Positions 1 to 53,864 of a DNA stretch of 64,000 nt are shown here, in pieces (within the stretch, counting starts at the first letter, position 1; each line of letters begins with the position of its first letter). Origin of the DNA: Amoebophrya sp. A120 (lineage: Eukaryota; Protista; Dinoflagellata); the NCBI GenBank assembly GCA_905178155.1, contig CAJINV010000001.1, positions 5,002,747 through 5,066,746 of the forward strand, given 5' to 3'. The translations under genes and the position numbers were made by a program. The notes under the pieces are model-generated. The model searched no databases and was not told where the DNA came from. It saw only the letters and a list, made by a program, of their open reading frames with translations.

Positions 1-279
1 AAGTCTCTCACGCGGAGACCAAGACAGCTCCGCTTGCGGCCACCGGGCTTGCGCCTGCGAAGAGTCTGACCCGGCTTCCGTACGTGGCAGGACCTAGGAT
101 TGGCCTGCGCCGCCCCTTGCGGGGCACTGGCTATCTCGGTGCTAATTTTTGAACCGTCGAAGCCCATGCGCAACCCGGCGACCCAAATGACCGCCGCGCC
201 AGGGAGGCAAAGAAAAAAACAAAAAAAGGAAGGCGCAAACGCGCAAGGCCAACAGCCCAGGCCCCCCAGGCACAGAGGC

Positions 280-560
280 ATCGCGCCTATTTTTTTGCCT
301 ATTTCGCGCCTAATTCCCGGGCTATTGGTTTTCGCAGCGAAAAAAAAAAGTCGCCGAAATTAGACAAAAAATAGGCAAGCACGGCCGGGGAATCAGACAA
401 AAAAATAGACAGGAAATTAGGCAAAAAAATAGATACAAAATTAGACAAGGAATTAGACAAAGAATTAGCAAGGAAATAGGCAAAAAACCAAACACGAAAA
501 CCGTAGGATAAATAGCACAGAAATAGGCGCGAAATGGCAAGGGGAGGCGCCGCCTAACTA
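280..560. repeat. Degenerate ~10-bp tandem repeat (AATTAGACAA / AAATAGGCAA) downstream of ORF2, with a short inverted block at its left
   Basis: Repeated aattagacaa/aaataggcaa units at 358-490. Reverse-complement units (gcctattt, gcctaatt) at ~285-317. Confidence 0.7.
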
Positions 561-825
561 GGAACACGGCGACTTGTTCCCAGTTCACAGCAAGCGTTCA
601 ACTTTAGGTCGTAGGCGGCTCGCCCAGGTGAAGATGTATAGTAGCAGACGCAGTCAACTTAAGTACAAGGGAAAGAGACATCGCTTAATCGAACCTACTC
701 AGTGCCTTGAGGTCGTGCTCAGTGCTTTGAGGTCGTAAGCGGCTCTAATTATCAGAGACCGAGAGCACCGCCAGAAGGGAGCCCGGCTAGCCGCGTCTCG
801 CGGATTTACGTCCACGACCATCTTT

Positions 826-3800
826 TCATGACCCGACTGCAGAAGGCCGGGGGCTGGTTAGCGGGCTGCCGTCACCACCCTGCGTCGCGGCCCCTTCGAC
901 GTCGTACTCCTCCATCGGCACCACGACGACTTCTATTGATTCCGGTGGCGCTCCCTGCACAGGCGGGAGGCTAGGCTCGTTATGGGAGGCGCGTTGCGTG
1001 TTCATTTCGTCGATCTCGCTGTCCTGCGTCGCGACGTGACATAGGAACTCACTAATTGCCTGCGAGGGAGCATCGAAGGGGTTCGGAGCAACGTTCTGCG
1101 GATCCGATAGCAGCGCATCGATGCGACTGATGTCGATCAACTCGTGTAGGCCGTCATCGCTTGTACTGGCTCCCACCTCGTCCCGGAACCCTTCGTGGGA
1201 TCTCGTGATTAATGCCGCGAGAGCCCGCGCTTCTTCGTCGTCAACTGGCCGCTCTTCCCGCTCTTGGCGGGCCGGGGAGGGTGGAGGCCATTCGTCTTCC
1301 CCCAGGCCTTCTGGCCCATGAACGAGGGTCAACACTTTTCGCGCCACTCCTACTTTGTCCGCCAACCCGTGCTGGAAGTTCGGCGGCTGTATCTCGTCGC
1401 CCTTTAGGAGCTTCACCATGGCGGCGCAGCGGAAACTCACGAGGTGATGCACTATGGCCGTCCACCCCACGTCGGCCTCGCTTTCTTCTAGCGTCTCGAA
1501 CTCGTCCTCGTCCCCCTTGCGCTTCCGCTTGTTGCTCGTTTTTAGCGCGTCTATTTTACACCTACACTTTCCGCAATACAAGCGACCCATGTGCCACCAG
1601 CAACCCAATCCGGCTATTAGGTCGCTGCCGTCCCCTGGCAGTAGACTGAACGCCGTGCGTGCCCGGGCGGCATCGAGAGATTTTAGGAGGTCACGGGCAC
1701 ACCCCCACTCCGCAATTAGGGTGGAGCGCATGGAGGATGACGGGTGCGATTCCGCACGCTCTTTGAGGTCTTCACGGAGGGCTTCGCGCATCAGGTGGCG
1801 GAGCTCGTTCGCCACCACATGCACCGGCACCGTCGCGGAAAACCACCTGTCCAGGGAAATTGCGGGCAGGGCCCCCACGAGGTTCTTGGAAAGCGATTGC
1901 GCCAGATCCACCTCCCGACTTAGCGACACATCGGAGTGGCTTGGCACCCACTGCAAAAGAATCCGCACGCCGGGGAGCTTGCTTTTGATGAAGGCAAGTT
2001 GACGCCGGATATTGCGCACCGCTGTGCGCGGGCGGTTGTTTTTAATTACTGAGATGACGCCGCTGGCATCCGCTAGCAGTAGTATCATTCGGGTGGGGTG
2101 CTTGTGCAACCAGCTCTCCGGCCTGGCGGCTGCTTCCTCTAGCAGTGTCATTGCAGTGGATAGTGCCCCGAACTCCCCCAGGAATACTGTGAGGTTGTGC
2201 TCGAGGCGGACCGCTATTGCGGATTTCAGTGTCGCGGCCCCCGCCCGCGAGATGATCACAGAGGCCACATCGGGAATCTTTGCTGGAGGGCCCGCTGCTG
2301 GTCCGCCTGCTGTGGCCGCCGCCTTGGGAGGTAGACCTGCGCCGCGAAAGCCGGCCTGCGCTGCTGCGGCATCAGCCGGCTGGTCTTCTTGCTCCTCCTC
2401 CACCTCCGAGGCCTTCGCCTGTCCTTCGCCGCTATCGGTGGCTACGATTACTAACTTCGTGCGCAGGTTGTCCTCCAGCCTTGCTATGTCCTTTCGCAGC
2501 CGCTTCGCCGCGGTGATCGCGCTCTCTCGCGACGTGGGTAGGCCATAGCGTTTGAAGGTAGCTGAGGAGTCTCTGAAGGACACGCCCTCCGGTAGTGGCG
2601 TGCCCGGAGAGAAATCAAACTCCACCGGGAGGCTCGCCCACCTTTTGTCCGTTACGAATTTCCCCAGGATCCGCTCGGCCTTGATCGTCCGCGAGCCCGT
2701 TACATCGTAGGCCTGGTGTGCGATGAGGCTGAGCTGCTGCAAGGCCAACACGCTCGGAACAACTGCTCCGATTGATTCGAAGGCGCCGTAGCACGGGCCG
2801 TACTTCGTCATTCCCAGGAGGGATCGCAGCTCCGTCTCGGCAACCGCGTCTACGTGGGCAAGGGCAGGGCGGTGCAGGAGGGCGGCGACGGGAAGGGCAT
2901 ATTGCACTTTTGAAAGCACATCCGCGTGGAAGACTCTGCCGATGCTCAGCGGATGCTTAGCCTCCGGGTCCGTCGACTGCTCCAGAATCTGGAACGCCTG
3001 AGCCTGGGCGATTTGCAGCTCATTGGTTTTGGCCTTTAGCCAACATTGCCAGGCTTCGCTATTGATCGTGAGGGGGAGACCGAGAGCCGTCGCGTAGCTG
3101 CTGAAGTTCGTGCGCCCATGGTATGAGCTGCCTGTCTCGTCCTTGCTGCGTTGGACCTCTGGGGGCCGCAGTGCATCACCCGTTTTTAGCCGCGCGACCG
3201 CTGAGAGGAGAAGGCGACTCTTTCGCCTTTTCGCCGCCTCGTCGCCTGGCGCCGGAATGGCGTCCGGGTAGCGCAAGAGGCAAAATCGGTAGTCTGCGCA
3301 GGGGTAATTGAAGTGGTCGATCATCGTGTTGCCCGCCAACTCCAGCCGGGTCGTTAAGTCTTCCAAAGTCGCACCCGTACCGAACAGCTTGATGTCGTCT
3401 GAATACTCGTTCACGGATAGGTGCGGAATGTCCTGCACGCCGCTTGCCCGTGTGGCCGCTTCCACGCAGCGGCGGAAGAACAGCGGTGATATTAACGTCC
3501 CCTGCCCTAAACTTTCTGGAAGCCCGAACGCCTTGCCGATGAGGCCAGCAATGCAAATCACCGCCTGGCGAGCGGTGAGCCACACCCATAGAGCGCAGAG
3601 TAGGTAGCGAGGGAGGCCCGCCGCGTGGAGCATACGGAGCACATGCAGCTTTTTGACGTTTTCGAAGCCTCCCTTGATGTCCAGTATAAGTACTCCCGCG
3701 TACAAGTGCTCCGCTCCGCTGTAACAGAACAAGATCCCCCGGATGCATCCCGTCAGGCAGGAGAAGCCCGGGCGGTAGGCGAAGTCGCAGGCAATGTCCG

Positions 3801-6800
3801 AGAGGTAGGGCTTCATCATTGCATCCAGGATGGCCTCCATCCATTTTTCAACCGAGTCCCCTATCGCGATCGGCCTGGAATATTTCCTTAAGAAAGGACT
3901 CGCGCCGCTCTTTGCGGACTTGAAGAGGAAGATAATGAGAGATAAGCGCCGAAGGCCTAAGTTCGCAGCCCCGTCGCAGACGCGCTTCATGAAGTTCCTG
4001 CCTATCTCGTTTCGTAGTTCTGGTTCTTGTTGTAGGAAACTGCCCGGCACGCCATCTTCGCCCGGGGAGGCGCGCCCGTTGATGTGCTTCGCTGCTTGTT
4101 CCAGCGTATTTTCGCCACAGATGATGGGCGTGCTTGGGGCGTCACGGAAGATCTTCTGCGCCTCTTCCTCTTGGCGTTTCTGCTCCGCTTCAGAGGTGTC
4201 GCAGCCCCCTAGTGCCACCGAGGTTACCCGCTCCTCGAAGGCCGCGATGGTCTCCTCTGGCGTGAGCGTCAGCTGTGCCTGGGCGTCCAGAACCGAAACC
4301 ATGCCCGCATTTCTGGGACATTTCTTCGGAACCCCGTGCCGCTCGAATGCTTCGGCCACCATAGGGACCGCAAACTCGTCTGGAGTTTTTCGGAGTGATC
4401 CGCGAAGGTCCTCGCGCACTTTCGCCTTCACCTCCTCGGTGGCTGCGTGCCACTGGAACACCCGGCGCTTTTTGAGGTGTGACGAGACCGCCGGGGGAGG
4501 TGGGGAGCTTGGGGTCCTTTTCGACGGGTGCTCTGTAATCTCTGCTGTGATGGCGTGATGCCCGGTACCTCCCTGGGCGAACTGGACCGGGGGGCTGATT
4601 GAGTGAACCACCCGCAGTTGCTTGCTCCATGGCTTTATTAGCATCATGTCGGGCTGGGAGTTATGCAGCGGATATGTTGCAACGTGTGGCGGGAAAGCGG
4701 GCCCTACCCGCTCTTTTGCAAGTTCGGCCATTATGCTTTGCTTGACAGAGTGGTGGCGGCAGAAGTTCCCCTGGATTACATTCGCGACGTTTCCCCGACT
4801 GAAGTTGAGGTCGCCCGCAACCAGTGCGAGCGACTTCTTTTGCGAGAACAAGACATCTCGCAAGTCGTGCAAGGCCTGCGCCTGAACTGACGGCGATAAG
4901 TATCCCAGGACCGCTCTTCCTCGTATGTGATTGTGAGCGATGGTCCCCTGGACGAGGCCTGCCAGCGGCCCGGAATTCTTGACAGCGGAGAAGCGCGTGC
5001 CTGGTGGCGAGACACCTCGCGCCACCAGGGTGAGCGAGTTGAAGGCCATGTACAGATGGTACCGCCCCAGAGTACCTAAAGCGAGCTCCTTCTCGATTTT
5101 CCTCCATTTCGTATCTGCCGGGTCGAATCCCCCACTGGCGTTCGCCTTGAAGATTTCGGACAACACCACTACTAGCGGCGCCCGTCTCATTATTTCCGCT
5201 GCTACCGCCTGCCAGATGGATAACAGCCGTCCGTCGAGGTTCAGGAGCAGCACAGAGAATGGCGCAGCCAGCCCGTAGCCCGCGTCTTCTGGAATGGTGA
5301 TGTTAAGTGGGGAGAGCAGGTTGGCCGGGAGCGAGGACGCGATAATTGTTCTCGAGACTGGATCGAGCCGCCCGCCGGCGTAGCACAGCGCCATATGTGC
5401 TAGCATGTCCTGGAAGCAGGCCGCGTGGTCGCATCTTGTGCACGTCCACAACACCGCGGTAGGGTCCTCCGGTATGCTTGCTGGCAGCGTCGCCACCAGT
5501 GGGCGGCGTGTGGTAGCGGTGGCCAGGTCTTTGGGGGCGGTCGTGACCTTGAGGAAGCCCGCCGCAAAGGGGTGGACAAGGGGCGGAGCCCGGCGGCTGC
5601 CATCGTTGCTCCGGGCAATTGCTTCCAGCTGGAATCTCGACTGCTGCAGGCAGGTTGGGCAGCGCCAGCTGCTGGGAGTGTCGTCTATGCCGCCCCGCCC
5701 CGCCTTCCTGGTCGGCGCGCAGATCATGTCCTCTTCCGGCAATGTTAGATTTGTCAGTGACTTCAGATTTCCCCGCACCTTCAGCTTTTGCACTCCTGCT
5801 GCGTCGGCTACAAAAATGACCGGGAAACTGCTGAGGGTTTCGCAGCCCATATCCTCGTACCTCGCTGCCTTCGTCCATGGTGGCGGCGGATTAGTCATCC
5901 GGGTGAAGCCGAAGTTGCCTTTTATTACATCCTGGTTTTTCTTAATGCGCGAGGTTGTGTCGGGGTCCTCGAGGTGTCGCACGGGGCGCAACGACATGAC
6001 GTCGCATCTTGCGCGGCTGGTGAGGGCCTTCGCGGAGTAGTTGAACGATGGGGTCCCCAGAGCTCTATCGGCGGCTTCCTGTATCTGCGTTTCGTGCGAC
6101 TTCGCGTGCGTCCCCGGCTCCACTTTGTCTAGCCCCAAGCGAATACCCTTGAACGAGGAGTTGGGACGCGCCAGCTGGCGCAAGCAGTGGACGCCCATTT
6201 CCAGAAGCAGGCTCTTGTCATGGGCTGCTGCGAACAGGCGACGATGATTCGACGACAGGTTGCTGCAGACGGGGACGCGCACGGCCTTTTGGCCGGAGGG
6301 CCATATCGCGGGCATAACTTCGGTAAGCAGTGCAGTGCTTTTCGTCGCCCACTCCTGCGGCGCCGGTTTTTCCATGCTCTCCACCGCAGCGTCATGGATT
6401 GGCTCACAGAAGGAGGGAAGTTGAGATGCCAGCGCGTGCACTAGTCTGTCGCGAACGCGAGCCCCCTCCAGCTCGAAGAGGTCGTTGCTCCACGGGGCGT
6501 CCTTGGGAGGCAAGGGCTTTGGGGGGTTGAGGAATGTGTCCGCACTGCTGGCGGCGACCGACGCCGGGTCTTGAGATGGCCCCAGTGGAGCGAGGCCTTC
6601 TTGCGTGCCTAACGACGCCCCGGATCCGTCGGGGTACACTGGGTCGTTGCTGGCGCCCCGATATACTTCTGCCTGCTGCTCTCCACCCTGCGAGAGCGTA
6701 GCCTGGGAGGGCTTCGCCGGACCGTTTCTCCGCCGCCGTTTGGTGGTGTTCCCCGCTTGCGACAGCACTTGTCCGTTTGCCGGTCGCTCGGGAGCAGCGG

Positions 6801-7641
6801 GCTGTGTCTCCTTCTCGCCAGAAAGTGTAATGCTCGCGAGGCCACCCGGACGGGGCTGGCTGCCCCCCGAGTCTCCCCTGCCTCCTGCAGGAGCTCCTAC
6901 ATGCTGCCCCGGAGACGGCAGCTTCGCTGTGCACCCATAATGGACGCCCGCCCAGTAGGCAAGGGTGACCTTGCGCTGTGCTCCCAGTCCTCGCACCGGG
7001 GAGGGCACTGCTATCGGCGCCGGGTCGTCGTAATTCGTGATGAGGGTGAAGACGCAGTCGTAGTGCGTAGCTGCCGCGGCCAGGCAGACTTGGTCACCCC
7101 AGGTTTTGTCTTGTTCCATTTTCGCGGTGTAGGAGTTCCAATCGACGTCCGGGCCGGACAGGAAGCGCCGGTAGGTCTCCGGGCTTTGTCGTAGCTGCGC
7201 TACGGCCGCTGCTCGTGATTCGCCGTGCCTCTCTTCGCTCCCTAGCACAGCGTGCGCGATTGCGCGGAACATGCAGTTCCCATCGTCGCCTACGGGGACC
7301 AAAGACAGCTGGTGATCGGCGAGGCGGGAAAGTAGCAGCTCACTTGCTGCTTGTTGCTGTTCATAGTCCCGGAGCGTTGCATCCTTCGCCCGTTTCACTA
7401 CATCCTCCTCGTTGAAGAGCCCAGCGGCACCATTGAACTTGAGGCACAGCTCGTGCCATTGCTCCGCCGTTAGAGGACGGGCGACCCCGTTCGACGATGC
7501 GCCGCCAGTTCCCGTCCCGCTGGACGTCGTCATGTGTGCACGCGCTCCCGTTGCGACGCTTGCCAGCGCAGCTGTCGGCAGGGCTGCAAAAGCTAGTATC
7601 CAGCGGCGGAGTTGATGGCTGCCAGTCACTGTGGTCCACAT
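826..7641 (-). CDS. Retrotransposon ORF2 polyprotein (2271 aa): OTU cysteine protease, Cys/His cluster, AP-like endonuclease, reverse transcriptase, RNase H, C-terminal zinc-knuckle-like motif
   Basis: OTU: VGDDGNCMFRAIA...WGDQVCL...LAYWAGVHY (~6930-7310). EN: LLLNLDG, VVVLSEI, VAGDLN, SQPDMML, GHHAI (~4535-5262). RT: SPGEDG, RPIAI...EKWME, LDIKGGFENV, GQGTLISPLFF, YSDD (3394-3405). RNase H: ATDS, GEFGAL, LADASG, QWVPSH, EVD (~1900-2450). C-terminal CGKC...HHLVSFRC. Confidence 0.95.
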   Translation of the reverse strand: MWTTVTGSHQLRRWILAFAALPTAALASVATGARAHMTTSSGTGTGGASSNGVARPLTAEQWHELCLKFNGAAGLFNEEDVVKRAKDATLRDYEQQQAASELLLSRLADHQLSLVPVGDDGNCMFRAIAHAVLGSEERHGESRAAAVAQLRQSPETYRRFLSGPDVDWNSYTAKMEQDKTWGDQVCLAAAATHYDCVFTLITNYDDPAPIAVPSPVRGLGAQRKVTLAYWAGVHYGCTAKLPSPGQHVGAPAGGRGDSGGSQPRPGGLASITLSGEKETQPAAPERPANGQVLSQAGNTTKRRRRNGPAKPSQATLSQGGEQQAEVYRGASNDPVYPDGSGASLGTQEGLAPLGPSQDPASVAASSADTFLNPPKPLPPKDAPWSNDLFELEGARVRDRLVHALASQLPSFCEPIHDAAVESMEKPAPQEWATKSTALLTEVMPAIWPSGQKAVRVPVCSNLSSNHRRLFAAAHDKSLLLEMGVHCLRQLARPNSSFKGIRLGLDKVEPGTHAKSHETQIQEAADRALGTPSFNYSAKALTSRARCDVMSLRPVRHLEDPDTTSRIKKNQDVIKGNFGFTRMTNPPPPWTKAARYEDMGCETLSSFPVIFVADAAGVQKLKVRGNLKSLTNLTLPEEDMICAPTRKAGRGGIDDTPSSWRCPTCLQQSRFQLEAIARSNDGSRRAPPLVHPFAAGFLKVTTAPKDLATATTRRPLVATLPASIPEDPTAVLWTCTRCDHAACFQDMLAHMALCYAGGRLDPVSRTIIASSLPANLLSPLNITIPEDAGYGLAAPFSVLLLNLDGRLLSIWQAVAAEIMRRAPLVVVLSEIFKANASGGFDPADTKWRKIEKELALGTLGRYHLYMAFNSLTLVARGVSPPGTRFSAVKNSGPLAGLVQGTIAHNHIRGRAVLGYLSPSVQAQALHDLRDVLFSQKKSLALVAGDLNFSRGNVANVIQGNFCRHHSVKQSIMAELAKERVGPAFPPHVATYPLHNSQPDMMLIKPWSKQLRVVHSISPPVQFAQGGTGHHAITAEITEHPSKRTPSSPPPPAVSSHLKKRRVFQWHAATEEVKAKVREDLRGSLRKTPDEFAVPMVAEAFERHGVPKKCPRNAGMVSVLDAQAQLTLTPEETIAAFEERVTSVALGGCDTSEAEQKRQEEEAQKIFRDAPSTPIICGENTLEQAAKHINGRASPGEDGVPGSFLQQEPELRNEIGRNFMKRVCDGAANLGLRRLSLIIFLFKSAKSGASPFLRKYSRPIAIGDSVEKWMEAILDAMMKPYLSDIACDFAYRPGFSCLTGCIRGILFCYSGAEHLYAGVLILDIKGGFENVKKLHVLRMLHAAGLPRYLLCALWVWLTARQAVICIAGLIGKAFGLPESLGQGTLISPLFFRRCVEAATRASGVQDIPHLSVNEYSDDIKLFGTGATLEDLTTRLELAGNTMIDHFNYPCADYRFCLLRYPDAIPAPGDEAAKRRKSRLLLSAVARLKTGDALRPPEVQRSKDETGSSYHGRTNFSSYATALGLPLTINSEAWQCWLKAKTNELQIAQAQAFQILEQSTDPEAKHPLSIGRVFHADVLSKVQYALPVAALLHRPALAHVDAVAETELRSLLGMTKYGPCYGAFESIGAVVPSVLALQQLSLIAHQAYDVTGSRTIKAERILGKFVTDKRWASLPVEFDFSPGTPLPEGVSFRDSSATFKRYGLPTSRESAITAAKRLRKDIARLEDNLRTKLVIVATDSGEGQAKASEVEEEQEDQPADAAAAQAGFRGAGLPPKAAATAGGPAAGPPAKIPDVASVIISRAGAATLKSAIAVRLEHNLTVFLGEFGALSTAMTLLEEAAARPESWLHKHPTRMILLLADASGVISVIKNNRPRTAVRNIRRQLAFIKSKLPGVRILLQWVPSHSDVSLSREVDLAQSLSKNLVGALPAISLDRWFSATVPVHVVANELRHLMREALREDLKERAESHPSSSMRSTLIAEWGCARDLLKSLDAARARTAFSLLPGDGSDLIAGLGCWWHMGRLYCGKCRCKIDALKTSNKRKRKGDEDEFETLEESEADVGWTAIVHHLVSFRCAAMVKLLKGDEIQPPNFQHGLADKVGVARKVLTLVHGPEGLGEDEWPPPSPARQEREERPVDDEEARALAALITRSHEGFRDEVGASTSDDGLHELIDISRIDALLSDPQNVAPNPFDAPSQAISEFLCHVATQDSEIDEMNTQRASHNEPSLPPVQGAPPESIEVVVVPMEEYDVEGAATQGGDGSPLTSPRPSAVGS

Positions 7642-8139
7642 CGCGTTTCACGCCCGTTTTAGGGATGTGGGATAGCAAGGCCTCGGCTTGCAGCGGTCGC
7701 GATTTCAGTTAGATCAGTAGCAGGACTTGCTACTCGGTGGGTTGCTTAGGGTCGAGTTTTGGTGGTTGTGGTGTGGGTTCATTCTTACTTAAGTTAACGC
7801 TTCACCCGCGTGCACGTGCTTATAGTCAGGCTGTAACTTAGGTTCTTTCGTGTAAGCGTTTATTTTTCTTGCGTGCTTCGTGCAGAGACATTGTCAGGAA
7901 TCAACTCGCGCCTACCTGTGCTGAGAGCAGCTGACTTCTTTAGTTACGCGTCGCACGATGCGCATACGAAGAGAGTGTGGACGCACTGCGAGTACAGAGA
8001 GATCTGGCTCGTAGGGTGGGGGAGGGAGAAGTCGCGCTACGTGTCGGCACTCGCGCATGAGGAGAGCCACGGCAGAGACACGACCTGATGCGGGAGGGGG
8101 CGCAGCAGGGAGCCGGGGGCAAAGAGCGGCGACCATGGA

Positions 8140-8745
8140 GGAGGCCCACTCCATGGACGGGGACGGGCAAAAACCCAGCGGCGCAGCGCGAGGCAAAGAG
8201 GGGAAGAGACCCCTAGGGACAGGAAAAGGAGACCAGGGCGCAGCGCGAAGGGGGCGCAGGCTGCGGCCCGAAACCCAGCACGACTCCCACTTCCTGTTCC
8301 GAAATTCGGATGGTTTAGAGCCTTACTCAGGTCCAATTTGCAGCGCGTCTGACTACCGCGATCTTCGTTCATCCAGTCTAAATTTATGCTGTTCTGATGG
8401 CACGGCTCGCGCATTAGTTGGTCTGTTCGTTCCGACCACCTTCTGACTGGTTCTACTGGATCGCGTGAGGTCGCAAGTCCACACACACTGACCCGGCCGA
8501 AGTTGTATTGTTTGATGTTCATTTGTACTTCTATCATAGGCTTTTGTCGTCAGTGCAGCTGAGTCGCGAAGCGCGACGGCATTCGCGCATGGGGAGAACC
8601 CTAGCAGCGGGGGAGTCCCAATGCGCGAGGGGGCGCGGCGAGGACAATGGGCGAGAGGCTGCAGCCGAGGAGGAGGAGCACTCCACGGGCAGGAGGGGGG
8701 GAGAAACCCAGCGGCGCAGCGCGAGGCAGAGGCGGGGAAAAACCC
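8140..8745. repeat. Imperfect direct repeat in the ORF1-ORF2 spacer
   Basis: cactcca...aaacccagcggcgcagcgcgaggca at ~8147-8195 and ~8679-8728, with similar flanks. Confidence 0.7.
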
Positions 8746-9271
8746 CGACGGCAGGGGAAAGCGGAGATAACGGCGCAGCAGCAAGGGGCGCAAAGCAGCA
8801 GCCCGAGGCACAGCGCGAACTCAGATGCACGAGATTAGGACTGTTCAAGCTTTCTGGATGACCCGAGACTGGCCGCACGCATGGACCTCTCGCTATTACG
8901 ATTACGAAGAGACGCACTCTTTTAGTGCGAGCGTATTTTTCACCCCTTTGACAGCAGCATCTCGTGTGCAGGGCTCAAGGTCAAGAAACAATGTAACGCG
9001 CAGCCTTGTTGCGAGTATAGTGCCAAGTTCTCACTGAGCTGCTTTCTTGTGGCCAGCAGCTTTTCTTTGACCTTCGAAAACTGTTCATCTTCTAACTCGC
9101 TACACCTGCTAGTTCTTGCAGGCACCACAACCACCTTTAAGTTTAGCTTGCCTCGACGGCGATCACAGTGTGTCGCGCCCGATTGCCACGCTCCCGATGT
9201 AACTTGTCGTCAGCGCTGACGACGTCGCATACTAGCGTTGGTAGTGCCAACTGCCCCGATTTTGATGTGGA

Positions 9272-12200
9272 TCATTTACGCCAGACCCCATGGTGACTTC
9301 TGTTTCGATTTCCCGCTCTGCCGAAGTCCGCGCTTCGGTTGTGCCAGTTTCTGTTGCCCCAATTTTGATTACGGCGGTTCCTTCGCCCGTTGTAGCGCCT
9401 GCCCTGGCGACTGACGGACTTCTCCTTGCGGCGCGAGTCATTGCTGCCAGAACGACGACTGCCATGCGGACTCCTGATTCGAGCGCGCGAGGGTTTCCGC
9501 CTCTCGCTGGGGTCTCGGCTGCGAGAGTGCCGGCTCTTGCCACGGTTGTCGTTGTCATCACCCTGGTGCCCGTTTGTTCGCTTCCGCGAGGACTGCCGCT
9601 TGATGTGGTCGCCCTTCCGCCTACTCGTGGCGGAGCGGCGACTGCGCGATCGGCACCGGCTTGACTTCGGGTTGCGTGCTTGTGGAGAGCGCGGCTTTAC
9701 TTCCGACGAACGCGCCAGGTTTCCGCGGTCGTCGCTGCTGCGAACGCCTACCACGCTGGAGCATTGCTTCGTCTGCACCGCGTCCTTGCTTTCGCTGTCT
9801 CCCGAGTCGGAGTCGGAATCATCTGACTCCCCCGAAGAAGAGCTCCCGCGCTCCGGCACGATGTCTTTGTGACCCCCCGTTGGTGCTTGGGCAGATACCG
9901 GATCATCAGGAGCCCTTGGCGATTGCGGAAATGCCTCCTCGTGCCCCTGGGCCTCCAGGGTGGTGGCTGGAGAAGGAGACGCGGCGGGGCCTGGCTGCGC
10001 GTATTGGTTGCCAGCTGCGTGCTTAAGTTTCGGGGGGGGCATTGCTACTTGGCTCGCAGAGGATGGGTTGTGGCGCTCGCCGCATTGGTGCAGGTCCGGC
10101 TCTGCGTTGACCGCCGCGGGGGCCGTGTCACTAACTCCTGTGCCGTTTGCCAGATCCACGGCTTTGCTGATGAGGTCAGCCAAGCCGATGTTGCTCGCTG
10201 CCGCTCTGCAAATGGCCCCGGCGAAGACGGCAGCGTCCGCCTCTGCCACTTTGCCGGTTGATCGAAGGAATCCCAACACCTCGCTTGTGCACGGCCGACC
10301 GCCGCAATTGTCGACGACAGCCTGCAGGTCCGCCCTGGTGTACACCCCGCCCGGCCCCGTGCCAGTGCGAGATGAGGTCCGCGCTTCTTCTATCGCAACT
10401 GCCATTGCCGTTGCCTGCGTGGCCTGGAAGGGGTTAAGCATCGGGACGTGCGGCGGTGCCTCTTCGCTACTCCGTTGGAAACCGGCCTCTGCCGGCCGAT
10501 CAGCTATGTGCCCGTCCTTGGTGAAGATCTTATCTCCGTTTGCCACATCCACGGCCGCTTCGATCCACTCCCGGCAGCCGACCTTCGACGCGCTGGCTTT
10601 TTCCACCTCCGCTGCGATCTTCAGCGCGTCGCCGAAGCTTAGCATTTCTCTTGACCAGAGCAGGTTGGCCAGAGGCACAGTAATCAGTGCGTTGTCACGC
10701 CCCGCTAGGTCGTCGAAAACCTTTTGTACGTCCTCGACCCGAACGGCGCCGCCAGGCCCTGTGCCCTGCCGAGCGTGGGCGATTGTTTCTTGGGGGGGCT
10801 TGCTGCGGACGACTTGGCCGCCAGAGCCTGAGAGCGGGACCTGGTTGGCAGTAGCAGCTGTGGAAGACGGGAAGACGGCACTGGGTGCCGCTGCGTCCGA
10901 GCTGCGCCCGTCCGCGCTGCGCTCGTTGGTCACGTTCCTCTCCGCGGCTACGAGCTCCTCCTTCACCCCGACCGTGCCCTCCTCGGGCATGCCCGTGGAC
11001 TTCGCCGTCCCGTCGTCCGCTTCCCCCTCACCTGAGCTCTCCGCGACGCCATAGTTGGAGCTCGAGGAGGAGCCTGCAACGGGGGTCGGGTTTTCGGCTG
11101 CGCCACCTAGCCCGGCATTCGCGCCGGTGGACTCGCTTCGCTGGGAGGTTTGCTCTGATCCGGACGCCGCCACGGGCTGGCTCGAACCGCACGCGCTTTG
11201 CTGTGACTTGGTAGCGGAGGAAGTCTGGTTGGCAGAGGAAGATGACTCCTCTTTGTATGCATTCTCTATGCATAACTCAATGCACCGGTCAAGATCTTTT
11301 CTGTTGTTCGCTAGGCCCATACTGATCGCCGTGCAGGCTAAGCTGCAACGCTTCTCGCTGCATCCGGTCTTCCTCAGCTTTCGCTGCAGTTGTATGGCCA
11401 GCTGCAACGAGTCCACGAAGCCGTCCTCCTCCTGCGTGAATCGCTTGATCAGTCTGGTCACGTCCTCCGTGGTGAGCCTGGGGGCAGGCACCGGAACGGC
11501 TGCTTGCGCATTGGTCTCAGCGGGAGCCCGTAGCGAGCTGTTGCGGCTCGGCTTTTGGTCGTGCGGAGACTCATCTCGCGCCGATGTACCCCGTCCTTGT
11601 CCGCCAGCCTCGTACCCCGACCGCTTCCGGCGCTTGGCCCTGTACCGCGAGTCGCGGCGGGGGCGCGAATCGTGTGTACGCCCAGTTTGGCGTCCGTCCC
11701 GGCTCGCCGAGCGTCGCCGCTTGAGCTGGATTCTCCCTGCACCTCCGCGTCCCGATCCAGAGACCCCCCCGTAGGTGGTGACGTTGTCGGTACATCCCTC
11801 GCTAATAGTAGAAATGTCCCGGCCATGGCGAGTGCGACTATCTCGCTTGGCGCGGCGCTCTGCGTCTCGACGGCTCGTAAGCACGACCTCCACGCCCGCC
11901 TGGTTATCCAGAGCGGATACCGGAAGGCTGTTTGGGCCGCTCAGGGGGATGCCGTGGTTGTGTAACGCCTTGCCACCCCCTTTCCCCTTTCCTTTCAGCT
12001 GCTTCTGCTTCGTTTGCGGTGGCCGCGGCGGACGGATGTGCAGGTCTGGCGAGTTGTAAACTTTGGTGACGTTCAGCACGTCGCGGCAGGCGTAGTCGTT
12101 CAAGAAGTTCAGGGTGGAGGTCGGGGACATTTTGATCTCGCCCCAGTTGTCACCTGTTTTACGAATGTGCTTGATCGTTTGCGGCTCCTTGGATATGACC

Positions 12201-12493
12201 AGCAGGACTTCGGCCAGCTTTGCAATTCCGTCCTTGAAGTGCTTCTCCTCGACCTTGCTCCACTGCTTGCTTTCGTCCATTGTCGCGGCTTGGGCGACGT
12301 CAGCTAGGCGCTTCGCAATCCCTGCTTTGTCTGGCAGGTTGACGTTCTGCCGGATGTCCTCGCTGTCTGCGAAGATCGCCGGGCAGCGAATGCAGACCTT
12401 GAAGCGGTTTTCGATGTGACCCACAGTGTGGGTTAGAGCTTCCAGCGAGGACTGCAGTGCCGCGTCCTCCTCCGTGGCGCGGGTCCACGACAT
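9272..12493 (-). CDS. Retrotransposon ORF1 (1073 aa), basic/RS-rich putative nucleic-acid chaperone with internal helical repeats
   Basis: Long uninterrupted ORF upstream of and co-oriented with ORF2, with similar GC-rich composition. It has Arg/Ser-rich tracts and two GTGPGG...AVDxANG repeats. No CCHC gag knuckle seen. Confidence 0.75.
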   Translation of the reverse strand: MSWTRATEEDAALQSSLEALTHTVGHIENRFKVCIRCPAIFADSEDIRQNVNLPDKAGIAKRLADVAQAATMDESKQWSKVEEKHFKDGIAKLAEVLLVISKEPQTIKHIRKTGDNWGEIKMSPTSTLNFLNDYACRDVLNVTKVYNSPDLHIRPPRPPQTKQKQLKGKGKGGGKALHNHGIPLSGPNSLPVSALDNQAGVEVVLTSRRDAERRAKRDSRTRHGRDISTISEGCTDNVTTYGGVSGSGRGGAGRIQLKRRRSASRDGRQTGRTHDSRPRRDSRYRAKRRKRSGYEAGGQGRGTSARDESPHDQKPSRNSSLRAPAETNAQAAVPVPAPRLTTEDVTRLIKRFTQEEDGFVDSLQLAIQLQRKLRKTGCSEKRCSLACTAISMGLANNRKDLDRCIELCIENAYKEESSSSANQTSSATKSQQSACGSSQPVAASGSEQTSQRSESTGANAGLGGAAENPTPVAGSSSSSNYGVAESSGEGEADDGTAKSTGMPEEGTVGVKEELVAAERNVTNERSADGRSSDAAAPSAVFPSSTAATANQVPLSGSGGQVVRSKPPQETIAHARQGTGPGGAVRVEDVQKVFDDLAGRDNALITVPLANLLWSREMLSFGDALKIAAEVEKASASKVGCREWIEAAVDVANGDKIFTKDGHIADRPAEAGFQRSSEEAPPHVPMLNPFQATQATAMAVAIEEARTSSRTGTGPGGVYTRADLQAVVDNCGGRPCTSEVLGFLRSTGKVAEADAAVFAGAICRAAASNIGLADLISKAVDLANGTGVSDTAPAAVNAEPDLHQCGERHNPSSASQVAMPPPKLKHAAGNQYAQPGPAASPSPATTLEAQGHEEAFPQSPRAPDDPVSAQAPTGGHKDIVPERGSSSSGESDDSDSDSGDSESKDAVQTKQCSSVVGVRSSDDRGNLARSSEVKPRSPQARNPKSSRCRSRSRRSATSRRKGDHIKRQSSRKRTNGHQGDDNDNRGKSRHSRSRDPSERRKPSRARIRSPHGSRRSGSNDSRRKEKSVSRQGRRYNGRRNRRNQNWGNRNWHNRSADFGRAGNRNRSHHGVWRK

Positions 12494-14326
12494 CGCCGGC
12501 GAGTCTCCTTGTGGATTATAGTGCTTGTCTTTATTAATTCAAAGCGCTTCAGATTAAATTTGATGATGCGCTGCAGGCACCTCCGTGCCAAAAACCTGTG
12601 CGCACTACCTCGATGATAACTGAGAGCCCGATGAAGGTTAAACAGCGTTCAATGGCACAGATTGACTTCGACAGTGACAGTCTTAATAGGTTCGAAGTGT
12701 TAGTTGACAATTGATGAGGCTAGTTGGCCGAGCTTGTGCAACATAAATTACTCGCTAGCAGACTAGCAATGCTTTCTCCGTTGGAACTAAGGATACCTGC
12801 CTGCCGATTCAAGTCCTGTTTTGTCTTGCAATTTATCAAATTTCTGCTCGTCTACCAGAGACAATTCCACGGCTTATCGGCCTGAGAGATCTTATTTTAC
12901 GCTGCGGATGATCCTTGTCCAATTGATGCTAGCAGGGAATACACCGCTCCTCTGCCTTTCGCGTTCCGTCTGACTTTTTTCACTTTTTGTCCTGCGGCTC
13001 GCCCTCCAGGGTCCAATAACTGAGCTAGACTAGTCTGATTGTTCATGATTGAATTCTCACAGTGACGCATCGGGGGCTATACGATAATGTAGGCGAGAGA
13101 CGACCTGGGGTCGACAGGCTTGGCGTGCTGCCCGGTCGTAGGCCGGAATCAAGAACCGGGGGGGACGCGGGCGCCTACGCGCTAAGGCGAGAGCCCAGAA
13201 TCCAAACACACTCTATCAGGGGTGCCGCTAGAGTCACAGCAGGGACTTTACGCGCACAGACTATCAGGTCTGCCCTGGATTCTGGGGGGGAAGATGCGGT
13301 GGGGGCGCAGGCCAGTCCGGAACCGCCGCGGTGGGCCGCACTGTACCTTCAACCTTGTCCCGCGGGCCGCAGGACCGTACTATCGCGCGTTCGCCATCGC
13401 CACACTCGAGTCCAAGTCCATTGCATGTTCTGCCGCCGGGGACTGGGCCATCAGTGCGCCGTCCGGTGATGCACAGTACGAGCGGATTCTGCGGAGGAGC
13501 TGGCAGCTTCTCGACTCTAGTTGGGGAGAGCCGGGTCCGACTGGAACCTGAGGTACATTTTTGGAGCAAAGGCGGGGACGGACGTGCTCCGCCCCCGAGC
13601 ACCCGCAACACGCCGCCATATTCGTATATATAATATCCACTCGTAATTAGACAGTAAAAACAGGGGCAATTTTTAATTTTTAATTCTAAGCATGCAAAAC
13701 ATTCGAAAAAAAAAAAAAGCAAATTCTGCAGCATTCCCGGGACTAAAATACCGTCTAAGCTGGCTTTTGCAGCTGCCTCGCGGACGCTACCGGAACTGGA
13801 CGGACCGCCGAACGGGCGAGGCATGGCTTCATCGAGACGATGCCCGAGGCGTCCCGACTCGGCGGGCTCACGCCAGGAGTTTGCTGTGTGTAAAGTCTTC
13901 CGAGTCCGCTCGTGTTGTGCGTTGACCTGAGGCCCATGCTGTGCTTGCCTTGGCGCCTGCCAAATCCACCGGCGGAGGAGCGGTCTTTGTCTGTGTGGCG
14001 GTCTTTTCCCGTGCTTCTAGGCGTGGGCAAGTCGGTGAGTCGAAGGCTGTCTCCGGAGGAGAGGTCATGTTCATTTGAAGTGTGCGCACGGACGCTCGGG
14101 GCGTCGATGCTCTAGCTAGCACTACTGTAAAAGGGGCACAGAGGACCCGCCACGTACGGGTGTTTATGTAATTTCATTTCGAAACTCCACTGCAGGGAGT
14201 CGGGGGAGGTACCGACGTGGCGTCAGTGGTAGGTAAACAATTGATGAGAAAAGCAAGAGATGGTCCTACTCTACGGCATAGCTCCCCCTGTTCTACATTG
14301 ATGGATCTCAGGCAACAAGACAAAGT

Positions 14327-14348
14327 CTTGAGCCAAAATGGCTACGGA
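14327..14348 (-). other. Complete genomic copy of the dinoflagellate spliced leader (DinoSL)
   Basis: The minus strand reads TCCGTAGCCATTTTGGCTCAAG, a 22/22 match to DCCGTAGCCATTTTGGCTCAAG. It is followed by AC rather than the GT donor of an SL RNA gene. Confidence 0.97.
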
Positions 14349-14643
14349 GTCTGGCATGACTCTGTCTACTCTATCATGCTAGTCTGGCATGACTCTGAGC
14401 TCTGTCTACTTGCGTGCCCACGAAAAGCTCCTCTTGTCTGTCATGCAAAAACGCAGGAGCTTCTCATGCGGAGTGCGCAACTCTGTCTCTGAACCACGGA
14501 AAGACTTGTCATGCTGGGGAGCGCATAATTTTTGCATTGTGCTCACTATAATGCCCCTCCTTGCATCACATCGGAGGTCTACGGGCTGTTCGTCCCCTCC
14601 TTGCATCACAAGTTTCCAGACCCAGACACATTTGCAATGCATA
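14349..14643. mobile_element. Half introner (family 1): one TIR only, truncated at the spliced leader/LINE junction
   Basis: Right TIR ttccagacccagacacatttgcaatgcata (14614-14643). Internal tgtcatgcaaaaacgcag...ttctcatgcgga matches the reverse complement of the interior of the 49155-49406 copy. No left TIR is present. Confidence 0.85.
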
Positions 14644-14683
14644 CCTGCCTTCCTCGTCTCAGCGGTAGTTCCACTTCCTTCTC

Positions 14684-17600
14684 TTACCGGCTCCCGGCCT
14701 GCGCAGGAGCAGTTGCAGTGCCTGCATCTTGTTCTTCGTGTTTGGCTCCGGCAGCTTGTTCTTCTTCTTGTTGTTCTGCTTCATTGCTTTCGTCCCGGTG
14801 GTGGGAGGTTTCCATGAATGAAGCTGAAATCGCACTACGAGCTGCACCCGCACCACGAAACGCATTGGTGGCCGCGATGCCCGTGCGCGGAACTGTCCAG
14901 AGCGCAGCCGCCCCACCGAGCGGTGTTCCCGGCGGGGGAGTCCCAGACATTGAAGATGGCCACACGACCGATGCTGGCGAGCCCAACCGCCAGGAGGTGG
15001 AGGACGGAACAGCAGAAACCGGTGGCGAAGCTGCAACAGCCGAAGATGGCTGCTGCTGCTGCAGTGCTGGCTGAGTCTGCTGCACTCGTTGGTTCCGTGG
15101 GTCTTCCGTCCACAGGTTCCAGTTGCCGTTTCTGCCGTCCCAGTCCTTCCAGTACTGGTTGCCGCCATTGTCCGTAGCCCAAGCGTACCACTTGCCATCG
15201 GAATTTTGCTCGTATTTGACGTTGCGATTCAGTGTCGGGTCCCAGTGGTACGTCTCGGGCCGGTTGCGGTCGTTTCCATTGTTCCAGTTGTTCCACCCGC
15301 GACCGTTTCCACTTCCTCCTCCGCACTTATGAAACTGTCAGGCTCGAAATCGACAAAGTTGAAATGCTTTGATATAACGCTAAACCGACCACCGAAACCG
15401 CTACACAACACGTAAACGTTGGCACCTTTCCGCAGAAGGTCAGGCCACCAGGTCGTCATGACAAATACATCGATACCAGCTGGACCCAGAGTTTGTAGTC
15501 GTCGCATGACAAATTTCCCCCGTGCCGGAAGTGATAGTGAATCTGTCATGCCGTTTACGGCAAAGGAGCTCCTCCCCTCTGTCATGCTATTCAGCAAGAC
15601 CCTTAGCAGGACGGTTGTACAATCTTCTGCCTCCCTTGCATCCTCAGCAATAGAGTCACTTTTTGCATCGCAGTTTATGCATTATACCAGTTATCGATTT
15701 CGATCCTGACACTCCCATAGTGCTGACCGCGATTGTTTTCATCCCGCCACCACGTGCTTCCAGATTGGCCACGATTGCCACCACGACGGCCGCCCCAGTT
15801 GTTGTTGTTGTTGTTGTTGTTGTCATTCGTGTTTTTCACCCACTGCAATGCGAAGTAGGGCGCGTGCAGCAGATTCAAATCCAGGGTTTCTGCGGACCAA
15901 TGCCGCGGCGAGCCTTCTGGCGGCGGTCGCTGCCCGTCCGTTTTGGGCGGGATCTCTGTACAGTATTGGTTGAAGGCATTTCTATAAAATTTTGGCATAA
16001 AAAGCGCAATTTTGCATGAAATCAGGTCAAGTTTGAAGATGGAAGGAAGCAACAACAAGAAAATGTCTCAGAACTGCACAAACAGAAACAACCCTCACCG
16101 ATGGGATCACACCGATCGCTCGTGGTCGTGGCATAAGATGAATATAGAAATTCAAATTGAAATTGAAATAGGAAAAGAAGAAGAACTCTGAAAAAATAAT
16201 AAAGCACCGAGAAACTCTGAAACTGCGTTCTGGTCGCGCAGCGAGAACGCTACGCGACCGTAATGCAATATGAATATTCTCATTCTCAACCGAAGAATGT
16301 ATGAGCATTATAAATATATATTTTTATGTAGTGCGGCAGCAAGAGTTTGTTGTTGTTTTTTTACCTTACCCGTTCTTTCTTGCGTTGGTTTGACCAGCCT
16401 GCTACGAATCTAAATTAGAACGCAGATCCAGCAACAGTGATTTACTTTGCTCTGTCACTTCGATGTGGATGAATCTTCATATCTATGGAGTATGGCGCTG
16501 GTGGTGGTGCTCATATTTCTGTCACCCAATACGAGAAATAGAAAATCTAAGTAGATTCATACCATTTGGAAAGTCCACGAATTCAATCGCGTACTCGGCT
16601 TCTGCTCCATCTGGGTGCTGCACCTCGAGGTTTTGGAAGACTGCGACATTCTTCTGGCGAGAATCTGGAAGCATGCAAAAAACTTGATCCTGCTCCTCGT
16701 AGTCGTTAGCCTGCGGTTTGTTCGGGCCAAGGCAGTCATCTAGGAGCACTATGGGGACCTAACATATCACGCCCCGTTGCGATTTTCGCTCCGCAAACTC
16801 TGTCGTTGATGTATCTCAATCTCTCATTAACATCATCATCAGCATCATCATCATCTTCATCAACTTCTACAAGTACAACTTACCCTTACGTAAAACAATA
16901 ATAAAACACATCACACTCATTGTCATTCTTCATCATGCACGAATCGATTGTAAATGTAAAGTAGAGATGCCAAAGAAAACAAGCAAAGCGAAAGATCGGC
17001 CATGGGCGTGTGAAGAAAAACCATGGATACACAGAGGCCCGGTTTCTCCTTCATCATCTCCATCTAGCTCCTCCGACACTCGCGTCAAACAAAGGCGTAT
17101 GCTGCGCAAAAGTATCGCACTCGTACAATTTGCAGCTATGCATGACACATCTTCTAGTAAGTTTCTTACATGAATCACCATTAGGAATTCGAATTGCACT
17201 TATTCTTCTTGATAAAATAAAAATTTGTCGTGCAAGAATACATACCAGTTCTAGTACGATATTACTTTTGCAACGAATACGGGAGGCAGGCAGATGAGAT
17301 GAAGCGGCAAGGTTCGAGTTTACTTCGGCTGCCCGCAAGGCTTCTTCGTTCAGCCAGGGATCCCCCACGGCTCGTTTGTACTTGTTCATCCGCTGTTGGT
17401 TGTAGTTCCGCACCAGAGTCTCCGCTTGCCCATTTCGATTCTTGTACACGAAATCGAGTTCCAGCGTACGAACACTCACGAACTTTCCACAGGGAAAATG
17501 GTCATTAGTGGTACGCCGGAATTCGAATTGGACGCTGTTTGCAGGACTGAGATCTTCGAACGGCATGTCCTGCTCGGACCCCGAGGTAAGGATTTCTTGG

Positions 17601-31524: not shown

Positions 31525-32472
31525 GGTTCGAGAAAATCTTCTTCGAGGGTTTACTTATTTCGCGCCGAATGGAAACGGAGGAGAGCATGCACCCGCTCGT
31601 TTTGCGTTATTTTCCCGGTCGTCGACCACCTCCCACTGGTCCATTTCACCTGCTTACTGCCACGACGAGTTACAGTTCTAGTTCTTCGTTGAAAAGTAGA
31701 AATCCACGACGACCATTTTCTGTGACAGACTGGTGTCAAGAAACAACTCTTGTTCACTACGTAAAGATATAATTTGTGCTAGATTGATTCGTGGTGTAGT
31801 TCTGTAGTTGAGAAACAATTGATGCTTTTCCCACTATACACTTACCACTTACACGACGCAGCGCCGAAGTGACCTGTACTTCTAGAGACTTGGAAAAATG
31901 GTGGAGATTGAATTGCAACAAATTCAAATTGTACCAAGTAGAGGAAGAATCACGACAAGGACAACAGTAAAGAGGGAGCTATTTGAATTTGCATATGATT
32001 CGCATCCATTATAATCGCCAGTTGTACTACTAGTCGCTGTCTTTTTATTGTTCCGGTTCCATCACTCTATCGGAGTCGGACAAAAAGCGACGACCACAAT
32101 AATTTTCACAATGATGATATACGTTGGACGACCAAAACGGCAACGGCCTGAAGCGGACAAAATGCGGCTAGGTTACGGCGCTTGAGATCAACCCTACAAT
32201 TATCACAACCGCAGATACGCAAAAGGTTGAGGTTCTACAACACGAAGACAACGACGAGGAAGATAGTACCAGTCTTGCGCTTTCCATCATGGTCACCCAG
32301 TAGCAGAAGTGCGAACGGCAATCATTGAAATATACAGCTTCACGCATCGCCATGAAGATCGTCACACTTGTACTTGTTCCATCACATTCACAAACGTGGT
32401 GTCAACTACTACATCAACTGCCTTTCTTCTTGTTGAGACGACAGGATCCATCGGTTCCACGCGAGTCACATC

Positions 32473-50242: not shown

Positions 50243-51037
50243 GATCCTTTACGTACTTATCACGATATTCTTAAAGTATAAGCACAGGTGGGTGCTTCTC
50301 TTCGAATTTGATTTTTAAGCAGTCGAGGAGAAAAGTAGGAAATATGGCATGGGCATCATGATCCTAAGAAGGACATTTAACTAAGGGTAAAAGTTATTAC
50401 GAGTGACTCACAAAAAGAAAAATCCGATGAATATCATGACAGGGAAGGTAAAAAAGTGGTTTTGATTTTGTAGCGGGGGAATGGTTTTGAGTGTCACCTC
50501 CTCTGTGTCACCTTGTGTTTTGTTCGGGAGTGGTTGATATCCGACTATCTAAACGACCATCATGCATCAACTAATACATGTTTGTGTTTCTAATATCTCT
50601 ACCGTTGATCATTGCGGGAACGACATCTAAGCTGGACGAAAACGAGTACAACTGAGGAGTTCACGAAAGATTACCGATGGCGTATTTCTGCGAGATGATT
50701 GTTGTAGTAAAACTTGCAGTCGCAGTTGCACGAACCGAATCGTTATTCGTTTTCGATGTTGACAGTTCAATATCTTTCTTCTCAAGGTAGACAACTACAG
50801 TAGCATTGCACGAACCGATGAGCAGCTGTCGCACGAACCGATCAGGGGCGAAAACAGTTTGACTTTGAGATTGTTCGCGGCCTAAAGACTTACGGCTGCC
50901 TCTGCATATGAACACGATGGTGAAATTAGTCGCCGGGAGGTGCTCGCTTCTTCAGGCGAGCGAGTAGCAGCTGTTTAATAGCGTACTAGTATCTACTTTA
51001 TGATGTTCGTGCTTTTAAGTAGCTGGCGCCTAGCGTC

Positions 51038-53185: not shown

Positions 53186-53864
53186 GGGGATTAAGATTAT
53201 GTTATGCTGGGAAGTAATACTAGGAAAACTTTATTAGCTCTGATCTTTTTCTCTCATAGCTCCTTTACAAAGGTTGGGGTTGTAGAGAGGGGAAAAGTAC
53301 TGGAGCGATTTCGTGGATTCGATCGTATGCACCAGGCAAAACGAAGATACACGAAGAGCACTGTAGGCATTTGCGCGCTGCAAAGACAAGACCGAGTGCT
53401 AACCGACCGACGTCGATGTTGTCACCATTTCTGCCCCACTCGCCAGCAAAGCCGATGACTCAGTTCTGGATTCAGGTCTTTAAAGCAAACAGAAATAAGT
53501 TGTGAAGCCCATTCCTTGAAATGCGACATAATCAGGAACCGAGAGATCACAAGCGAGCAGCATCTCGTTGCTCCGGCTGCTATGCAGACGGCTTGACGGT
53601 TGGTTAGCAGTGTTCATATACGAAGATGGAAGATACCGAGAGAGCCTTGAACAGAAACGAACCGAGAAGTCTTTGACTTTGTACTCACACAACAAAGGAC
53701 ATCAACTTACGGCGGCCTCTGCATATGATGATGAACACGATGGTGAAATTAGTCGCGGGGTGCTCGCTTCTTCAGGCGAGCGAGTAGCAGCTGTTTAACA
53801 GCGTACTAGTATCTACTTTAATGATGTTCGTGCTTTCAAGATCAAGTAGCTGGCGCCTAGCGTC

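Follow-up and report, generated by a model that had tools for sequence, protein, structure and literature searches.

Introduction

Regenerating a complete 5′ end at each round of retrotransposition is a basic problem for retrotransposons without long terminal repeats (non-LTR elements) such as long interspersed nuclear elements (LINEs), and it is known to be solved by an internal promoter or by a ribozyme that cleaves itself. The locus described here lies in a 64,000-nt stretch of the genome of the dinoflagellate Amoebophrya sp. A120 (contig CAJINV010000001.1, positions 5,002,747 to 5,066,746; hereafter the window, in whose own numbering all positions are given). In it, an element with two open reading frames (ORFs) probably begins with an exact copy of the dinoflagellate spliced leader (SL; DinoSL), the short sequence added to messages by trans-splicing.

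LINEs that coexist with trans-splicing have been described in several settings. SLACS, CZAR, CRE and NeSL insert into the SL RNA gene and possess a restriction-like endonuclease. Among the trypanosome elements, RIME and ingi share both ends. The passages of PMC1874656 drawn on here describe trypanosome LINE RNAs as unspliced and initiated at the internal promoter Pr77, and an accompanying hepatitis delta virus (HDV)-like ribozyme is described there and in parts of PMC3383444. In Schistosoma mansoni, six SL exons merged to transposable elements were suggested to represent trans-spliced, retro-transcribed elements, with mis-assembly left open in the relevant passages of PMC5832876.

In dinoflagellates, retrogenes bearing DinoSL relics are an established outcome of mRNA recycling, following Slamovits and Keeling (2008) as presented in passages of PMC3229502, PMC5585692 and PMC12014239, the last of which treats SL relic patterns. 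The published recycling model for host genes has the AG dinucleotides of an integrated SL serve as the next acceptors (PMC3229502, section 11, in part). The source of the reverse transcriptase (RT) is given as unknown, with LINEs presumed, in the text available from PMC5585692, and Ty1/copia elements are proposed in that from PMC3942190. For Amoebophrya, passages of PMC7789003 describe inverted-repeat introners, a unidirectional gene layout and one complete DinoSL per genome, which is taken as the SL gene.

Our preferred reading, held with moderate confidence, is that this locus holds an intact two-ORF LINE with an exact host SL as its 5′ end, likely because a full-length RNA, once trans-spliced, was reverse-transcribed as far as its tip and the copy entered an introner within a host gene that is expressed and co-oriented. 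Host read-through and trans-splicing would then regenerate the same 5′ end.

Results

An exact spliced leader at a probable retro-insertion junction

The minus strand of positions 14327–14348 reads as the exact 22-nt DinoSL, letter-identical to the sequence given in the consulted part of PMC5585692. Even with three mismatches allowed, the window contains no further match, shuffled sequences yielded matches in 0 of 100 cases, and no other SL suffix of at least 9 nt occurs on either strand of the window. The original prediction, made from the sequence alone, held that this SL is co-oriented with the two ORFs, is followed by AC and stands outside any SL-gene repeat. All three statements were confirmed, the last by the lack of an SL array in the window. 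An SL RNA gene would carry the SL exon, a GT donor and the SL intron, often in arrays; here a single copy is followed directly by AC, and a genomic SL lacking the GT of the SL RNA intron is the mark of DinoSL-tagged retrocopies. GT continuations, as in SL RNA genes, occur at 39 of 258 public SL sites, and the sequence downstream of the present SL is unlike the 25 commonest of them.

Where the terminal AG of an SL is joined to other sequence, the joint is, with high confidence, a product of trans-splicing, and its presence in DNA implies reverse transcription to the tip of the RNA. The prediction of such an origin is thus supported by the junction at the terminal AG, the missing SL-RNA intron and the target-derived insert that adjoins the SL.

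This insert occupies 26 nt (14348–14373, minus strand) and, by sequence comparison, is a rearranged copy of the upstream target DNA, composed of 11 nt from 14410–14400 overlapping 17 nt from 14397–14381. Its last T overlaps the first SL base; because T14348 also fits the 17-nt target copy, 21 nt of the SL are unambiguous. Target-templated extra bases of this kind are typical of 5′ joints in non-LTR insertion. Beyond the insert lies a host inverted-repeat introner (14374–14644, minus strand), which begins with a GT donor used by the host transcript and is interrupted just before its second terminal repeat. Its left repeat is present at about 14606–14644 and its right repeat is absent, whereas five other introners of the window retain both, which bears out the truncated introner noted originally. 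Other introner copies diverge from the window at 14374 into terminal-repeat-like sequence, as seen in a loose end of run X6. Both the target-derived insert and the introner without its second terminal repeat are what a retro-insertion would be expected to leave. No flank word of at least 10 nt recurs in 1–14348, and neither the right introner repeat, a tail nor a target duplication is found there, so position 1 appears to cut the element short of its 3′ end and of any target-site duplication.

The target of the element is an introner and not an SL RNA gene, which bears on the highly improbable alternative that the SL is itself an SL RNA gene or the target DNA of a SLACS/CRE/NeSL-type element, and so lies outside the element. 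An SL adjoining a non-LTR element is what such targeting would produce, and the one complete SL reported per Amoebophrya genome has been taken as the SL gene. Against this stand the AC after the SL, the lack of an SL array, the introner as upstream flank, and an ORF2 in which APE-like and RNase H domains occur in place of the restriction-like endonuclease of those clades.

Anatomy of the element

All parts of the element lie on the minus strand. Its 5′ leader (12494–14326) spans 1,833 nt and contains 20 upstream ATGs, with no poly(A) run and no match to an HDV-like descriptor. The first ORF of at least 80 aa lies 502 nt from the SL, and ORF1 lies 1,833 nt from it, so that the host ORF expected shortly after the SL of a DinoSL-tagged retrocopy is missing. 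Among public SL sites without GT, 159 of 173 have an ORF of at least 80 aa within 300 nt; by this measure the element is unlike an ordinary retrogene.

ORF1 (9272–12493; ATG at 12493, stop at 9272) is unbroken over 1,073 aa and contains long basic tracts rich in Arg and Ser, from which its product is likely RNA-binding. It has no family match in Pfam, a protein search recovered only ORF1 itself, and the ESM Atlas gave no usable match for its N-terminus. The spacer between the ORFs (7642–9271; 1,630 nt) contains two A-poor repeats of about 255 nt each (8562–8818 and 8030–8283) that are 71% identical. Part of the first repeat folds with a z-score of −3.05, and an abundant RNA-like contig terminates inside it, at 8740. 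These repeats are possibly processing or translation signals; 6 of 62 pairs are compensatory, a count that comes from two sequences only and is not used as evidence.

ORF2 (826–7641; ATG at 7641, stop at 826) is unbroken over 2,271 aa. Pfam places an OTU protease at about 7284–7018 (E 4e-9) and detects RVT_1 with an E value of 2e-5, which falls short of the curated cut-off. When ORF2 is combined with four relatives in a profile, the best PDB matches are R2 and L1 ORF2p (E 1e-7 to 4e-7), and LINE-type RT proteins account for all nine of the more distant ORF2 matches that were scanned from a list of 150; ORF2 thus has the non-LTR-type reverse transcriptase that marks a LINE. As in RNase H-bearing LINEs, an RNase H domain follows the RT, at about 2232–1915 (residues 1806–1911), where it scores 23.9 bits and 200 shuffles reach at most 2.2. 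Upstream of the RT, the signal of an APE-like endonuclease is weak, at 5.6 bits with its own profile against a maximum of −0.3 in 200 shuffles and with no Pfam match. The matched segment spans the GDxN and D motifs, which are partly kept in relatives from Amoebophrya AT5.2. Both the RNase H and APE profiles were built from the more distant ORF2 matches. Cys/His motifs are also present, and Pfam, the profile source used for this search, gave no match to a restriction-like endonuclease in ORF2. AlphaFold models (mean predicted local distance difference test scores of 46 and 38) were too poor for structure search.

In a search of 1.84 billion representatives, the closest non-self proteins listed for ORF2 are Amoebophrya AT5.2 gene models. 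These relatives (g8496, g12720/g12721, g15099/g15100 and g15807) have a similar domain order, the best four at 28–31% identity. Together with the inverted-repeat introners and the unidirectional gene order, they indicate a host of Syndiniales type. A metagenome scan with the RT alignment returned 356 pattern matches, none confirmed as a relative.

The 3′ trailer (1–825) is at least 825 nt long and contains neither a poly(A) tail nor the right introner repeat. A cluster of short GC-rich hairpins, some with GCAA loops, occupies 1–130, and the fold of 1–200 is not significant (z −1.07). At positions 434 and 509, every contig of the assembly runs X4 and X1 that covers the site differs from the window letter; since all of them disagree, these two letters may be assembly errors.

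No LTRs or terminal inverted repeats were found within 1–14348, beyond which the 3′ end appears to lie, and a tRNA gene search of the sequence was also negative. A home-made descriptor search, run without a positive control, gave 0 matches to an HDV-like ribozyme; Rfam found no ribozyme at E values up to 1 and no credible family, and the 5′ 369 nt of the element fold with a z-score of −0.8. The HDV-like ribozyme that characterizes the 5′ end of some LINEs was therefore not recovered. Judged by these sequence features, the element is a divergent two-ORF LINE.

Copy number and sibling loci

Four of the twelve listed public runs were compared with window positions 1–17000. Run X4 is DNA-like, with a base depth of about 44–46. 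One X4 contig spans 558–13235 at depth 46.2, and by this depth ORF1 and ORF2 appear single-copy, in line with the protein searches. Both ends of the element behave differently from this interior. A contig over the 5′ tip (14130–14324) is 94% alike, with 10 substitutions and one gap, at a depth of 204.8 against about 46. Summed depths reach 249.9 at 14168 and 246.9 at 434, which are 5.4 and 5.3 times single-copy depth. The trailer at 102–558 is common to other loci, and a 2,482-nt contig shares 326–554 and is then unlike the window. Read in multiples of 46, these depths make it appear that about four to five other loci share the 5′ tip and 3′ trailer, although contig depth is, according to the tool, not copy number. 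Bin means indicate that the shared tip probably extends to about 14000 and that a second shared patch of about 180 nt probably lies near 13235–13260. The shared tip contig breaks off 2 nt short of the SL junction, and this suggests that the element family has a fixed 5′ end. We infer that the loci sharing both ends are non-autonomous partners.

The difference in multiplicity between a multi-copy tip and single-copy ORFs raises the question of whether the locus is composite: the SL could head a separate short retro-element or retrocopy, consisting of the tip or of the leader with ORF1, which the RT part adjoins through nested insertion or 5′ transduction. The unusually long leader and spacer would suit such a history, as would the absence of any homologue tying ORF1 to LINEs. 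On the other side, the element strand has no poly(A) run between the SL and ORF2, trailer and tip are about equal in multiplicity, the SL is not followed by a retrogene-like ORF, and both ORFs have high G+C at third codon positions (0.71 in ORF1 and 0.70 in ORF2, compared with 0.53–0.63 in six of seven host ORFs and 0.72 in one). We regard a composite origin as unlikely. Because no poly(A) run separates the SL from ORF2, both ends have similar multiplicity and no retrogene-like ORF follows the SL, we consider it likely that the SL heads the LINE and not a neighbouring retrocopy.

Host gene, transcription and read-through

All 12 ORFs of at least 400 aa in the window lie on the minus strand, as expected from the proposal that the element is co-oriented within a unidirectional cluster. 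Run X1 is RNA-like, in that a GT-AG intron is skipped and coverage is very uneven; the tool itself marks this designation as a guess. An X1 contig at depth 327.6 covers three exons (16745–16563, 15955–15720 and 15322–14645, the last three covered; 14645–16745 overall, minus strand) of a co-oriented host gene. The sole open frame of the host gene terminates about 40 nt short of the introner donor, which places the introner in the 3′ untranslated region. The host intron at 15323–15719 has non-canonical ends (TA..GC on the minus strand) and is skipped in the RNA-like contig.

The host contig departs from the window exactly at the introner GT donor, 14644, and continues for 1,214 nt elsewhere; the host transcript is likely spliced over the introner and the LINE to an acceptor beyond position 1. 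A second X1 contig (depth 38.2, 5.9 kb) matches 8740–14627 with no differences or gaps. It is unspliced and runs from the introner interior, 279 nt upstream of the SL, through the SL and past ORF1. Host read-through into the element, which had been postulated, is thus seen at contig level. RNA trans-spliced at the terminal AG of the SL would be identical to the DNA. ORF2 is represented in X1 by scattered pieces only, at depth 3–5. The raw RNA run X10, with three partial reads on the region, and run X6, with sparse pieces, were not informative.

The second contig also confirms the SL junction independently of the assembly. An assembly chimera with a cDNA-derived SL would fit the fact that no SL-bridging DNA contig is among the 22 records listed (with 3,763 further rows), and that the listed DNA-like contigs at 14168–14257 mostly carry sibling letters. 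Since a short-read contig from another run, X1, agrees letter for letter across the junction, we find this explanation scarcely credible.

The main rival to the preferred reading is an internal promoter with incidental SL capture. The conserved tip would be a Pr77-like promoter or signal common to the LINE and its short partners, and the SL would have been added once and be dispensable for the cycle. A tip of about 200–330 nt kept at roughly 94% among loci with differing interiors is what this predicts, and it resembles Pr77, which is common to L1Tc, NARTc, RIME and ingi (PMC1874656, in the passages considered). The SL's own TTT(T/G) has been proposed as a promoter motif in retrogenes (PMC5585692, likewise), and dinoflagellate messages are generally trans-spliced, so that an SL could be added incidentally. 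However, at the 10 variant sites listed in 14168–14257, X1 shows none of the sibling letters, which fits transcription of this copy only, by its host gene, and the RNA contig includes the upstream introner. A 22/22 SL also fits recent renewal better than long inheritance; the point is weak, since a young copy gives the same result. Taken together, we judge such passive capture rather unlikely, while giving it more weight than any other alternative.

Discussion

A possible cycle and its difficulties

In the cycle that we favour, trans-splicing would place the SL on a full-length element RNA, and this SL-capped RNA would be reverse-transcribed to its tip and inserted by target-primed reverse transcription, with leader, ORF1 and ORF2 moving as one unit. 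Host transcription would then run through the introner into the co-oriented element, where the AG of the integrated SL would serve as acceptor. The product would be a re-capped full-length RNA with the same 5′ end for the next round, made without a promoter of the element's own. The 20 upstream ATGs and the 1.6-kb spacer make it likely that ORF1 and ORF2 need their own acceptors; one further acceptor near ORF1 and another near ORF2 would turn the element into a small polycistron.

Several observations weigh against this reading. No second copy with the SL and both ORFs was seen in X4 contigs or protein searches, and because ORF1 and ORF2 appear single-copy, the other loci with the tip lack near-identical versions of them. 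Word-based protein searches returned nothing, ORF1 itself only, or six 100% pieces of ORF2. The number of siblings is itself drawn from contig depth, and the conservation of their tip is also open to the promoter explanation. The shared tip contig stops at 14324 and does not run through the SL, which can mean a branch at 14325, with siblings differing at or before the junction, or one at about 14294. The single complete DinoSL reported per Amoebophrya genome would leave little room for many full-SL copies; if a full SL occurs in such genomes as one SL gene with few copies besides, the SLs of the siblings may be partial or missing altogether. There is no SL-plus-relic tandem at the element's 5′ end, and hence no direct trace of an earlier round. 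Contigs cannot show RNA starts and drop rare variants, which bears on the absence of sibling letters from X1. The RNA nature of that run is a guess, and X1 and X4 may be the window's own source material.

A survey of public SL sites also gave no parallel. It reported 126 loci in metagenomes, for which 2 of the collection's 64 parts were covered, and 119 in viral contigs, and 242 loci with 258 distinct SL sites were analysed; the positive control passed. A LINE RT followed none of the 258 sites, 151 of which had at least 1,500 nt of sequence, and none had an ORF1 match or a nucleotide match to the element. With short contigs and a partial sample, this is a weak negative.

A broader proposal, which we offer tentatively and consider doubtful as a whole, is that of a promoter-less, ribozyme-less LINE family whose full-length RNA is excised and capped by host read-through and SL trans-splicing. 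The element would be a small polycistron (SL, leader, ORF1, spacer, ORF2) yielding two trans-spliced mRNAs. One master copy, held in a host-spliced introner, would mobilize short partners that share both its ends, and its RT would be a possible source of SL-relic retrogenes.

The more limited conclusion already has consequences. In a genome of the dinoflagellate lineage, an SL-capped RNA at least 14 kb in length was likely copied as far as its tip by machinery of the LINE type, which bears on the nature of the machinery behind SL-relic retrogenes. With one intact copy in a compact genome, the idea is also simple to test.

Other observations

Contigs labelled viral, many of them in giant-virus bins (L125–L229, for example L132–L136, L143, L147 and L174–L180), contain many exact DinoSL copies in both orientations. 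They hold 134 distinct SL sites, 131 of them without GT next. Where enough sequence was available, 108 of 118 sites have an ORF of at least 80 aa within 300 nt (median 50), and 6 of 16 ORFs scanned have a Pfam match (DUF4116 in three, CCCH zinc fingers in two and an ABC transporter in one). These loci resemble retro-copies of dinoflagellate mRNAs, located in DNA that is viral or was mis-binned.

Elsewhere in the window, consecutive ORFs at 23413–31554 carry chorismate-binding, glutamine amidotransferase and aminotransferase class IV domains, and likely constitute one introner-split, PabABC-like fusion gene for p-aminobenzoate synthesis. At 50934–56213, about 2.5–2.8 kb of a DUF285 repeat gene with a 150-nt internal array is tandemly duplicated. 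A pair of 56-nt inverted repeats 1.2 kb apart (29348–29403 and 30643–30698) is unrelated to the common introner repeat and possibly represents another element type.

Comparison with known systems

Our literature search, which covered sources other than subscription journals, Repbase reports, figures and bioRxiv supplements, found no description of an SL-headed dinoflagellate LINE, and the portions of PMC8045281, PMC2836005, PMC5890265 and PMC5240408 that were available contain no such case. The closest precedent is the DinoSL-relic retrogene; in both, the genome carries an SL where a retro-copied RNA has its 5′ end. In contrast to such retrogenes, the copied RNA is here that of the retrotransposon, with two ORFs and a length of at least 14 kb, and the SL stands 1,833 nt from an ORF without a tandem relic. 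The case is thus known dinoflagellate mRNA recycling applied to a LINE, to which the element adds contig-level evidence of host read-through and of splicing around it, an introner as target, a divergent lineage with OTU, APE-like, RT and RNase H domains, and short partners that appear to have both ends in common with it.

The APE-RT-RNase H LINEs have the same ORF2 domain order, the APE-like domain being weakly supported here, but the present element differs from them in its N-terminal OTU protease, its long leader and spacer, and an ORF1 that is not recognizable. OTU proteases occur in some LINEs. Their presence in Ginger and Helitron elements is described in the consulted part of PMC2836005. 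The S. mansoni cases likewise have a genome-encoded SL on a transposable element, and the passages of PMC5832876 considered give no element anatomy, junction or cycle. Unlike SLACS, CZAR, CRE and NeSL, which are characterized by SL RNA gene targets and a restriction-like endonuclease, the element has an introner as its target and an APE-like and RNase H layout.

The trypanosome L1Tc/ingi elements and their partners NARTc and RIME come close in setting, as LINEs in a trans-splicing host with unidirectional gene clusters and with short partners that share the 5′ end (PMC1874656, in part). They differ in that here the SL itself forms the 5′ end and the searches yielded no HDV-like ribozyme. Trypanosome LINEs are reported, in the same passages, to avoid trans-splicing, whereas the element described here appears to have passed through it.

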